Source of the DNA: Escherichia phage Seurat
Length of the DNA stretch: 56,776 nucleotides
Reading direction: 5' to 3' (one strand)
Sequence record: NC_027378.1
Position 1 is the first letter of the stretch. Every line of letters begins with the position of its first letter. Positions 51,099-54,021 of this stretch are shown in pieces. Made by a program: the position numbers and the translations under genes. Under the pieces are notes generated by a model, which saw only the letters and a list, made by a program, of their open reading frames with translations, searched no databases and was not told the origin of the DNA.

Positions 51099-51338
51099 AT
51101 GCGTTTAAAGTATAAGCAAAAGATTGTAGAATACTTCGGGATGCAACTTGTTGTCCCTGAATGGGTTAAATGGCTTGCTGTCGATGGTGATGGGGAGCTG
51201 TACGGTTACGAATGCGAGCCTGATAACTTAGTTGATGAACCGTGGGACGAATGGTACACAGAAGAAGGTAAATGTTACCGCATTACAGAAGTAGTTCTTG
51301 AAGAACATTGGTCTGAAACCTTAGTGGAGCTTTTCTAA
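51099..51338 (+). CDS. small acidic protein, paralogous family member
   Basis: VPEWVKWLAVDGDGELYGYECEPD...EEHWSETLVEL. Confidence 0.5.
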   Translation: MRLKYKQKIVEYFGMQLVVPEWVKWLAVDGDGELYGYECEPDNLVDEPWDEWYTEEGKCYRITEVVLEEHWSETLVELF

Positions 51339-51681: not shown

Positions 51682-51978
51682 ATGCTGTATTTAGGAATGG
51701 ACGAAACTGGACACGCGATTCCTTCCGTTAACAAGGAGACGCAAGTATTTACCGACTATTACGGGTCTGCTGTCCCTGTTGAGCCCTGGGCTAACTTTAT
51801 CGCTGTAGACGCAGACGGTAAAGTACATTGTTATGACGCCAAACCTTCTTGCTATGAATCTGGTAAGCAATGGATGCTTGGCGTATACGGTTTGCATGTT
51901 CGCTACTGCGGCGAAGTTGACATTGAAGGTGTGGACTGGCGCGATACGTTGAAGGAGATTAAAGATGTCCGCGGCTGA
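51682..51978 (+). CDS. small acidic protein, paralogous family member
   Basis: VEPWANFIAVDADGKVHCYDAKPS...GVDWRDTLKEI; RBS GGAGG. Confidence 0.5.
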   Translation: MLYLGMDETGHAIPSVNKETQVFTDYYGSAVPVEPWANFIAVDADGKVHCYDAKPSCYESGKQWMLGVYGLHVRYCGEVDIEGVDWRDTLKEIKDVRG

Positions 51979-52281: not shown

Positions 52282-52821
52282 ATGAGCTGTCAAAAATGTA
52301 ACGGAACGGGAATGGTTGATAGTGGTGGAGTTCAACCGTGGGGTGATCCTATTCTGGTGGAGTGCGATTGTTTATATCGTGAGCGCGATGCTTGGGAGCT
52401 GGATCAAGCTGGAGGTTATTACTCCCGCCATGTTATGGCAATGACATCCGAAGGTTTGCACAGCAAAGGTGATATTGCTGCGGAGCTGGGCTATCGTGAC
52501 ATGCGCATTGACCAGATAGAAGCTGAATGGCGTGCTCAGGAAGAACGTGCAGAAAATGCTGAGACGGATCTTGTCGACATGCGTGCTGCTGAGCACGCTC
52601 TATCCGATTCTTATATTCGTTTGCGTCAAATTGTTGGTGCAATGAATCCGCCTGGTGTGAGCAGCGAAGAGGTGTGGGCGCATACCGAGAAGAAGGCTCA
52701 AGAGTTGCGTGATCGCTGCGAAGCTCTGGAAGCTGTAGCAAAGGACTTCCTGCGTCGTAACGCTAACGGTCCTTTGTTCTATCGTGATTTGTATAACCGT
52801 TTTAAGGAGATTGTGAAATGA
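52282..52821 (+). CDS. zinc-finger protein (DnaJ-like CxxCxGxG motif)
   Basis: Track start is GTG at 52270; reset to the ATG at 52282; CQKCNGTG...ECDC. Confidence 0.5.
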   Translation: MSCQKCNGTGMVDSGGVQPWGDPILVECDCLYRERDAWELDQAGGYYSRHVMAMTSEGLHSKGDIAAELGYRDMRIDQIEAEWRAQEERAENAETDLVDMRAAEHALSDSYIRLRQIVGAMNPPGVSSEEVWAHTEKKAQELRDRCEALEAVAKDFLRRNANGPLFYRDLYNRFKEIVK

Positions 52822-53087
52822 TTACTGCTCAAGAAGCTCGTGAATTAAGCGATAAGCTGGATATTAGCGAAGATATTGAATTTATCAGTGACAGCATTCG
52901 TGTAGCTGCTACAAAGGGATACAATAAAGTATCACTGGTGACCAAATACGGCGCTGTTGGCAATCCTGACACTCAAGACCCAACCACTATGAAGATCGCT
53001 AAATGGTTAGCCGATTCTGGTTTTACGGTGCTATATTATCCTTCCATGGACCAACGTGATAACGAGCGTACTGAGGTAGCATGGTGA
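52818..53087 (+). CDS. hypothetical protein
   Basis: 89 aa. Confidence 0.45.
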   Translation: MITAQEARELSDKLDISEDIEFISDSIRVAATKGYNKVSLVTKYGAVGNPDTQDPTTMKIAKWLADSGFTVLYYPSMDQRDNERTEVAW

Positions 53088-53155
53088 TTGAAGAAAATAT
53101 CAAATATTGGAAAGGCTTTATTGACGAAATGTTGAAACCATTGGAGAAGAAATAA
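53081..53155 (+). CDS. translationally coupled micro-ORF (24 aa), not in the ORF track
   Basis: ATG overlaps the upstream stop (ATGGTGA) and its TAA overlaps the downstream ATG (TAATG). Confidence 0.35.
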   Translation: MVIEENIKYWKGFIDEMLKPLEKK

Positions 53156-53547
53156 TGCTATTAGTCGTCACCGGAGGTCGAGATTTTAAGCATGTGGAGT
53201 ATATTTACGCTCAATTGGATAAGCTGCATATGCAAAGAAGGATAACCACACTTCGCCACGGTGACGCTGACGGTGTTGACCGGATTTGCGCACATTGGGC
53301 GGAGCGCAACGGTATTAAAACAGAAGCATTCCCTGCCCCGTGGGACAATCTTTCCTTACCAAATACCAAGATACGGTATAATGCCAAAGGTGCTTATAAT
53401 GCACAAGCAGGCGCTTACCGCAACCAATTAATGCTGGATACTGATCCTAAACCAGATCACGCTATTGTGTTTCCTGGCGGAGCTGGTACTATGGATATGT
53501 ACAGACGGATTAAAGCATCCGGTATTCCTTACACTTTAGCGGAGTAA
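53155..53547 (+). CDS. SLOG/LOG-like Rossmann-fold protein (DUF2493-like)
   Basis: VVTGGRDF, GDADGVDR and VFPGGAGTMDM glycine-rich motifs. Confidence 0.45.
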   Translation: MLLVVTGGRDFKHVEYIYAQLDKLHMQRRITTLRHGDADGVDRICAHWAERNGIKTEAFPAPWDNLSLPNTKIRYNAKGAYNAQAGAYRNQLMLDTDPKPDHAIVFPGGAGTMDMYRRIKASGIPYTLAE

Positions 53548-53550
53548 ATA

Positions 53551-54021
53551 ATGGCTGACGTTAAAACTATTGTTGATGCAATGGACGAGTCCAAAGACTG
53601 CCAACTGAAGAAGTCGTTTGAAGTAAAACAGGTTACAGAGACTCAGTTAGTCTGTAATTTTGCGCGTTATTGTGGACTGGGCCGTGGGAAAGACTGGAAC
53701 GGGCTTATTGTTATGCCCACATCACAGATCCTCGTTTACGTCCGCAATATTGTAGAAGATCTTTTGCGTCTTCAAATAGATATTGGTGACGTAGAAATTA
53801 ACATGACCGCGAGCTCTACCATTGTGGTTAAATGGCAGTCGGGCGAGACACTGCGTTTGGAAGCGTGCCATTGTGCTAAGAGCCTACACCACCTGCGCGG
53901 TTGTCATTACCAGTTCGTTGGGTTTGTACATCCGCAAGGGTTAAGCGAGCGTACGGCGCTGGTAGCGCGTTTGCTGCTGCGTCCTTATAATAACGAGCCG
54001 GAAGTTATATACGAGGCATAA
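53551..54021 (+). CDS. hypothetical Cys/His-containing protein
   Basis: 156 aa. Confidence 0.45.
   Translation: MADVKTIVDAMDESKDCQLKKSFEVKQVTETQLVCNFARYCGLGRGKDWNGLIVMPTSQILVYVRNIVEDLLRLQIDIGDVEINMTASSTIVVKWQSGETLRLEACHCAKSLHHLRGCHYQFVGFVHPQGLSERTALVARLLLRPYNNEPEVIYEA

Follow-up and report, generated by a model that had tools for sequence, protein, structure and literature searches.

A probable micro-protein gene, conserved and nearly always unannotated, between overlapping genes of Seuratvirus phages

Two described peptides are close in length to the product considered here: Stp of phage T4 (26 aa), which acts on a host restriction/anticodon-nuclease complex, and TnaC (24 aa), a leader or arrest peptide. 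The closest described gene arrangement is that of coupled pairs, in which co-directional genes overlap at their stop and start codons (ATGA / TGATG class; Huber et al. 2019, PMC6728339; PMC10666635; review PMC12548453). Termination-reinitiation in such pairs is associated with stop and start codons that share 4 or 1 nt, or with a very short gap (PMC6728339, PMC10666635). Small phage proteins encoded in overlapping operons are a well-known kind; what is new in the locus described here is a probable, conserved small phage gene that is nearly always left unannotated.

The DNA analyzed (the window) is a 56,776-nt stretch from Escherichia phage Seurat (NC_027378.1), a CAjan-like E. coli siphophage of the genus Seuratvirus (Queuovirinae), and the region of interest is 92 to 99.6% identical to CAjan, the SLUR phages, and BASEL phages, e.g., KurtStettler and GottfriedDienst. 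A sequence-only reading had drawn attention to a 24-codon, ATG-started ORF at 53081 to 53155 on the + strand, and this ORF was present along with each of the overlaps attributed to it. The ATG (53081 to 53083) lies inside the string ATGGTGA, in which an upstream 89-aa gene (52818 to 53087, +, phrog_5321) ends with GCA TGG TGA, and a GAGGT at 53073 to 53077 sits just 5' of it within the last codons of that gene. At the other end, the last A of the TAA (53153 to 53155) is the first base of the ATG of a 130-aa ORF (53155 to 53547, +), creating the sequence TAATG at 53153 to 53157. The 130-aa product is a SLOG-family protein, passing the gathering score of Pfam PF10686 YAcAr (E = 4.9e-18, 65.2 bits versus a cutoff of 28.2, residues 3 to 64) and also matching phrog_289 ("GTP-binding domain") in a PHROG scan. 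A 156-aa gene (53551 to 54021, +, phrog_25149) follows. In the record of phage CSP1C (PQ202980.1), homologs of 52818 to 54021 carry the names "ATPase," "ATP-binding protein," "threonine-tRNA ligase," and "DNA processing protein DprA"; those given to the 89-aa and 130-aa proteins are unsupported by Pfam or PHROG matches and are probably annotation errors.

Like described coupled pairs (PMC6728339), the three genes are co-directional and overlapping, with a 4-nt GTGA (53084 to 53087) at the 5' end of the micro-ORF, a 1-nt TAATG at its 3' end, and a Shine-Dalgarno sequence inside the preceding gene at both junctions. Unlike those pairs, the arrangement involves a very short ORF overlapped at both ends and begins with GTG rather than ATG. 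Relatives of the micro-ORF depart further from the pattern, since the 5' overlap is 8 nt (GTGATTGA) in some and Hafnia phage yong3 lacks the 3' overlap.

The spacing had been described as looking designed, but the geometry by itself lies within chance. When the 67-nt spacer was shuffled with its flanks fixed, an ORF bridging both genes appeared in 1,917 of 20,000 shuffles (9.6%), and tight junctions are usual in this genome: in a rough ORF set of the window, 32 of 70 same-strand junctions overlap or are at most 3 nt apart. The shuffle result speaks for a spacer that is non-coding and open by chance, with its conservation due to recent common ancestry or to a nucleic-acid element, and the case for the micro-ORF therefore rests on its relatives. 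A second micro-ORF bridging two genes was seen on the - strand (45811 to 45746, 21 aa, MQIWLQWLLLSVYSVRTKEEL), with TAATG at its start and ATGA at its stop. Its tblastn matches were confined to 14 related records, of which some show 2 amino acid changes and some align only from residue 2, and the evidence that it is coding is weaker than that for 53084 to 53155.

Comparison of relatives moved the start codon. The position of the ATG at 53081 is occupied by CTG in CSP1, SD04, PLYYY01, Skure, and one IMG/VR contig, by TTG in GottfriedDienst, VogelGryff, SA80RD, Dru_SM1, and phiG7, by TCG in a metagenome contig (L033), and by an in-frame TAG in ECP2304. In the upstream gene, the A-to-C change at 53081 is silent (GCA to GCC). 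The codon that follows, GTG (53084 to 53086), is invariant among relatives and forms the 4-nt GTGA overlap with the upstream stop (TGA, 53085 to 53087). Because the ATG varies and the GTG does not, the ATG originally proposed as the start is better viewed as an optional in-frame start, and the functional start is probably GTG 53084, giving a likely product of 23 aa (M-IEENIKYWKGFIDEMLKPLEKK) from 53084 to 53155 on the + strand. If the non-conserved ATG is also used in Seurat phage, the product there would have 24 residues.

A ribosome-binding site accompanies this start in every context. The GAGGT lies 6 nt before the GTG, a proper spacing, and 3 nt before the ATG, with a predicted duplex with the 3' end of 16S rRNA of -6.9 kcal/mol. 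Across all eight upstream contexts of the micro-ORF, duplexes of -5.2 to -12.8 kcal/mol were found 3 to 7 nt before the GTG. Nonagvirus phages served as a control without the micro-ORF: the corresponding junction has a duplex of only -1.1 kcal/mol. A micro-ORF was sought there after the homolog of the 89-aa gene and was rejected, as these phages keep ATGGTGATT but then reach a stop after 5 codons, leaving only the remnant MVIIG*. In SA126VB, a Nonagvirus-type upstream allele and the micro-ORF occur together, and this phage reads GTGGAGATT in place of GTAGAAATT, where two substitutions that leave the upstream protein unchanged produce a GGAG.

The frame was open and free of indels in all of about 45 sequences, comprising 34 GenBank phages, 3 IMG/VR contigs, and 8 metagenome contigs. 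The GenBank set consists of 31 close Seuratviruses plus STP-SP5, yong3, and ECP2304; tblastn with the peptide recovered all 31 close records and the STP-SP5 homolog, and a degenerate DNA pattern found the eight metagenome contigs, which carry further variants. When IMG/VR was queried with the products of the SLOG and 156-aa genes and with two degenerate DNA patterns, only the same three contigs came back. The micro-gene is confined to a clade within Seuratvirus. Five diverged alleles of 18 to 30 residues are represented, read from the GTG, by the window (MIEENIKYWKGFIDEMLKPLEKK), Skure (MIEQHMQHWKDFIEEMLKPLEKK), ECP2304 (MIEQELLHWKDFIKEMLGDK, 20 residues), STP-SP5 (MIDKEISYWSYFITEMLKTLHPKQENKDDG), and yong3 (MIDKEIDIWSDFIKEMLK, 18 residues). 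The Skure allele differs at 7 of 23 residues despite flanking genes that are about 98 to 99% identical, a divergence that could reflect relaxed constraint rather than allele exchange.

Only one of the 34 related GenBank records annotates the micro-protein, as a "hypothetical" 31-aa coding sequence of Salmonella phage STP-SP5 (WPJ68547.1). Common gene callers do not report ORFs shorter than about 30 codons, which explains the absence of the micro-gene from the other 33 records. The STP-SP5 protein is a true homolog, 58% identical over 24 residues, and shares the same ATGGTGA junction with a homolog of the 89-aa gene; it differs from the window peptide in having a longer tail and in overlapping a homolog of the 156-aa gene instead of the SLOG gene.

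Selection at the protein level speaks for coding. Eight residues are invariant across the five alleles; three of these have a single codon (the start GTG, W, and M), and the other five (I, F, I, E, and L) all vary in their synonymous codons. In the micro-ORF frame, pS ranged from 0.39 to 1.0 and pN from 0.12 to 0.33, with dN/dS of 0.15 to 0.24 where computable, while the two other frames contain stops and gave dN/dS of 0.16 to 2.2, at least 0.5 in all but one comparison. Within the close group, 8 of 13 distinct variants are synonymous and 5 non-synonymous, and 9 of the 13 fall at codon position 3 (binomial P of 0.0002 to 0.005), with no such signal in the other frames. Pairwise chi-square tests of codon position were each weak (P of 0.02 to 0.47), and all tests pointed in the same direction. 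The individual statistics are modest because the sequences are short.

The non-coding alternative is favored by the roughly 10% of shuffles with a bridging ORF, by the high identity of most relatives (92 to 99.6%), and by the lack of annotation in 33 of 34 records. Against it stand the three-base periodicity and synonymous excess confined to the micro-ORF frame and the open frame in the STP-SP5, yong3, and ECP2304 alleles, which are too diverged for a blastn search to reach. Signs of a nucleic-acid element were also sought: an Rfam search gave no match, a promoter and terminator scan found nothing in the spacer, and no significant RNA structure was detected. A chance-open spacer is consequently a distinctly improbable explanation. 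The "real micro-protein" half of the sequence-only reading was upheld by the frame open in all relatives, the purifying selection, the ribosome-binding site in every context, and the annotated STP-SP5 homolog.

Exchange of the neighboring genes provided a second line of evidence. Six close relatives carry another gene upstream, and homology starts exactly at 53081/82. Five of these six upstream genes share a C-terminal segment (...LFYRDLYNRFKEVIGD) that belongs to the gene family preceding the 89-aa gene in the window, and they stop at the second TGA of GTGATTGA. An initial count of four or more unrelated upstream genes in the six phages was rejected on finding this common C terminus in five, leaving three upstream contexts among close relatives. 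The octamer GTGATTGA (53084 to 53091) is conserved and carries the micro-ORF start together with TGA stops in both other frames. The first TGA ends the 89-aa gene, which is absent or replaced in some relatives; the second (53089 to 53091, +) ends the alternative upstream gene (...RFKEVIGD*) in relatives without the 89-aa gene. As upstream genes stop at either TGA, the conserved octamer supplies a stop in both other frames. The octamer thereby acts as a mosaic junction at which different upstream genes end and phage homology breaks, and around it the 89-aa gene is present, absent, or swapped for a Nonagvirus-type allele.

These junctions also bear on whether the micro-ORF frame might be reached by programmed -1 frameshifting, to yield a C-terminal extension of the 89-aa protein. 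The micro-ORF does start at the stop codon of the upstream gene and is in the -1 frame with respect to it. However, an X XXY YYZ slippery heptamer was not found in ACTGAGGTAGCATGGTGA (53070 to 53090), the alternative upstream gene, which stops at the second TGA, stands in another frame relative to the micro-ORF, and an independent Shine-Dalgarno sequence and GTG are conserved. We regard such an extension as extremely unlikely, and the fusion was rejected on these grounds.

The downstream side is equally variable. The SLOG gene is absent from STP-SP5, ECP2304, and yong3, and the peptide is conserved in all three. In STP-SP5 and ECP2304, the micro-ORF directly abuts and overlaps a homolog of the window's 156-aa gene, and in yong3, it ends without overlapping a downstream gene. 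Because the peptide is kept while neighbors on both sides are exchanged, the micro-ORF behaves as an independent module.

Several further observations concern the genes around it. The SLOG gene is flanked by similar junctions, TTGGAGAAGAAATAATG before (53140 to 53157) and GCGGAGTAAATAATG after (53535 to 53553), and in ECP2304, which lacks the SLOG gene, a single hybrid junction, GGAGACAAATAATG (1779 to 1805 of L043), joins the micro-ORF to the 156-aa gene. This pattern suggests that the SLOG cassette was gained or lost by recombination between ribosome-binding-site and start junctions. In yong3 (L022), 590 nt after the micro-ORF (1508 to 2097) have no annotated gene and contain ORFs of 75 and 104 aa, the 75-aa ORF with a good ribosome-binding site (ACGGAGGAATTATG). 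Small proteins sharing the motif P.W(A/V)(K/N)(W/F)(I/L)A(V/A)D(A/G)(D/N)G...Y are encoded at 51099 to 51338 and 51682 to 51978 of the window and at 1824 to 2138 and 2098 to 2352 of yong3, and look like a paralogous accessory family repeated within Seuratvirus genomes.

A key question raised by the sequence-only reading was whether the micro-ORF is instead a coupling device controlling the SLOG-like gene. In its strictest form, the ORF would only ferry ribosomes to the SLOG start, by termination-reinitiation or by unwinding a weak hairpin over the SLOG ribosome-binding site, and the peptide would be functionless. The overlap with neighbors at both ends fits this proposal, such overlaps are well known to couple translation (PMC6728339, PMC10666635), and TAATG is invariant in every SLOG-carrying relative. 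An imperfect hairpin (-9.7 kcal/mol in the window) also pairs the SLOG Shine-Dalgarno region with SLOG codons 6 to 8. Compared with shuffled sequences, the RNA fold around the SLOG start was not significant (z = -0.35), nor was that of the wider region (z = +0.71). The SLOG gene also has its own GGAG (53143 to 53146, +; duplex of -6.4 kcal/mol), 8 nt before its ATG in an A-rich stretch, inside micro-ORF codons L-E-K-K, and this site and the insignificant local fold point against a strict dependence of SLOG translation on the micro-ORF.

OddieOddie (L012) is the one exception in this respect. At the equivalent of 53145, an A-to-T change converts GAG to GTG, replacing E with V in the peptide and removing the SLOG GGAG; the SLOG Shine-Dalgarno duplex weakens from -6.4 to -2.8 kcal/mol, and the hairpin over the SLOG start strengthens from -9.7 to -14.9 kcal/mol (z = -2.2). 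It is the only variant in which SLOG translation might depend more on the micro-ORF, and it adds to the points in favor of a coupler.

Two SLOG homologs from Vibrio phages do without such an ORF. In Vibrio phage 1.022.O, no micro-ORF intervenes and the SLOG gene overlaps the gene preceding it, and in PS65A.1, no ORF homologous to the micro-ORF was found upstream of the SLOG gene. Together with the SLOG-less phages, the gene's own GGAG, and the insignificant fold, these homologs leave the proposed SLOG-control device unsupported. The selection on the amino acid sequence, and the retention of the peptide in three SLOG-less phages, including yong3 with no overlapping downstream gene, further argue against a functionless peptide, making a pure coupler unlikely. 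The co-directional genes joined by GTGA and TAATG have the geometry described for coupled pairs, and passive coupling at both junctions, ordinary for such overlaps, is plausible.

A related proposal is that the peptide acts in cis as a regulatory leader or arrest peptide of the TnaC/SecM/ErmCL type, in which conserved residues stall the ribosome and control downstream expression. Its length of about 24 codons and the conserved W and F-I-x-E-M-L recall sequence-specific nascent-chain effectors, and in most genomes, the micro-ORF stands directly before another gene; TnaC is similar in length, has a few strongly conserved residues including a Trp, and also lies directly upstream of another gene. 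The resemblance ends there, because the distance from the conserved EML core to the stop is 1, 3, 6, or 13 codons rather than fixed, and there are three downstream contexts (the SLOG gene, the 156-aa gene, and no overlapping gene) rather than a conserved target. No terminator, attenuator, or significant structure sequestering the ribosome-binding site was found (z of +0.71 and -0.35). These differences led us to reject this reading as well, and we consider it very unlikely.

Taken together, the comparisons make it likely that 53084 to 53155 is a real, conserved gene whose amphipathic, helical micro-protein is read from the GTG in a tightly coupled operon. The gene lies within a long polycistronic block of small + strand genes. 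In the inferred mechanism of translation, ribosomes would start at the invariant GTG, aided by the Shine-Dalgarno sequence in the last codons of the upstream gene, and those that finish the upstream gene at the overlapping TGA (GTGA) would probably reinitiate there too. Ribosomes released at the TAA (TAATG) could then pass on to the SLOG gene, as ordinary operon packing rather than a dedicated switch.

The predicted product consists of a conserved core, MI[DE]xx[ILM]xxWxxFIxEML, and a variable tail. AlphaFold2, run with a small alignment, predicted a single helix over residues 2 to 21 with a pLDDT of about 95, and the conserved I, W, F, I, M, and L occupy one face of this predicted helix. Hydrophobic moments of four alleles were 0.48 to 0.61, each exceeded by fewer than 0.4% of shuffles. 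Such a single amphipathic alpha-helix could act through its hydrophobic face, by which it would bind a partner from the phage or the host. Scans of the peptide against Pfam and PHROG gave no match, and when 1.84 billion representative proteins were searched with a profile, only one matched, the STP-SP5 31-mer, which was itself in the query alignment. Because that one match is the STP-SP5 homolog, the peptide is not recognizable as part of any larger known protein. Since these searches yielded no homolog of known function, the proposed mode of action is based on inference only. No single partner co-occurs with the peptide across all genomes. Tryptic peptides of the micro-protein include MIEENIK and GFIDEMLKPLEK.

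Of special interest for the function of the peptide is the set of genes that surround it. In Seuratvirus DruSM1, 105 ORFs were deleted by Ojima et al. (bioRxiv 10.1101/2024.04.14.589459), and in the primer table of that study, ORF83 ("GTP-binding domain") corresponds to the SLOG gene that immediately follows the micro-ORF. The ORF83 deletion primer begins with CCATTGGAGAAGAAATAATG, which places ORF83 as the homolog of the window's SLOG gene. Deletion of ORF83 sensitized DruSM1 to AVAST type III, deletion of ORF84 (the homolog of the 156-aa gene) sensitized it to AVAST III and QatABCD, and deletion of ORF85 sensitized it to QatABCD; the upstream ORF82 could be deleted, and the table lists no defense system for it (bioRxiv 10.1101/2024.04.14.589459). 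Because homologs of its genes are reported to counter AVAST type III and QatABCD in DruSM1, the accessory block of the window (53155 to 54021 and downstream) is probably an anti-defense cluster. Both flanking DruSM1 deletion designs leave the micro-ORF and its Shine-Dalgarno sequence intact.

This context invites comparison with T4 Stp. Both are peptides of about 20 to 30 residues from an accessory region of a lytic coliphage, and in DruSM1, the region adjoins the reported anti-defense genes; unlike Stp, the micro-peptide shares no sequence similarity with it, and any anti-defense role of the micro-peptide is conjecture. A host-directed effector, either an anti-defense factor or a trigger or modulator of defense, acting alone or with adjacent genes, is a speculative function to which we attach little probability. 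If it were true, the micro-ORF, left in place in every DruSM1 knockout, could have masked or contributed to the phenotypes. The locus shows how a tiny phage gene can be retained while both of its neighbors are swapped at short conserved junctions (GTGATTGA on one side and GGAG..AAATAATG on the other), and it adds to the Seuratvirus genome a conserved gene missed by annotation pipelines, inside a block that has been mapped for anti-defense in a sister phage.
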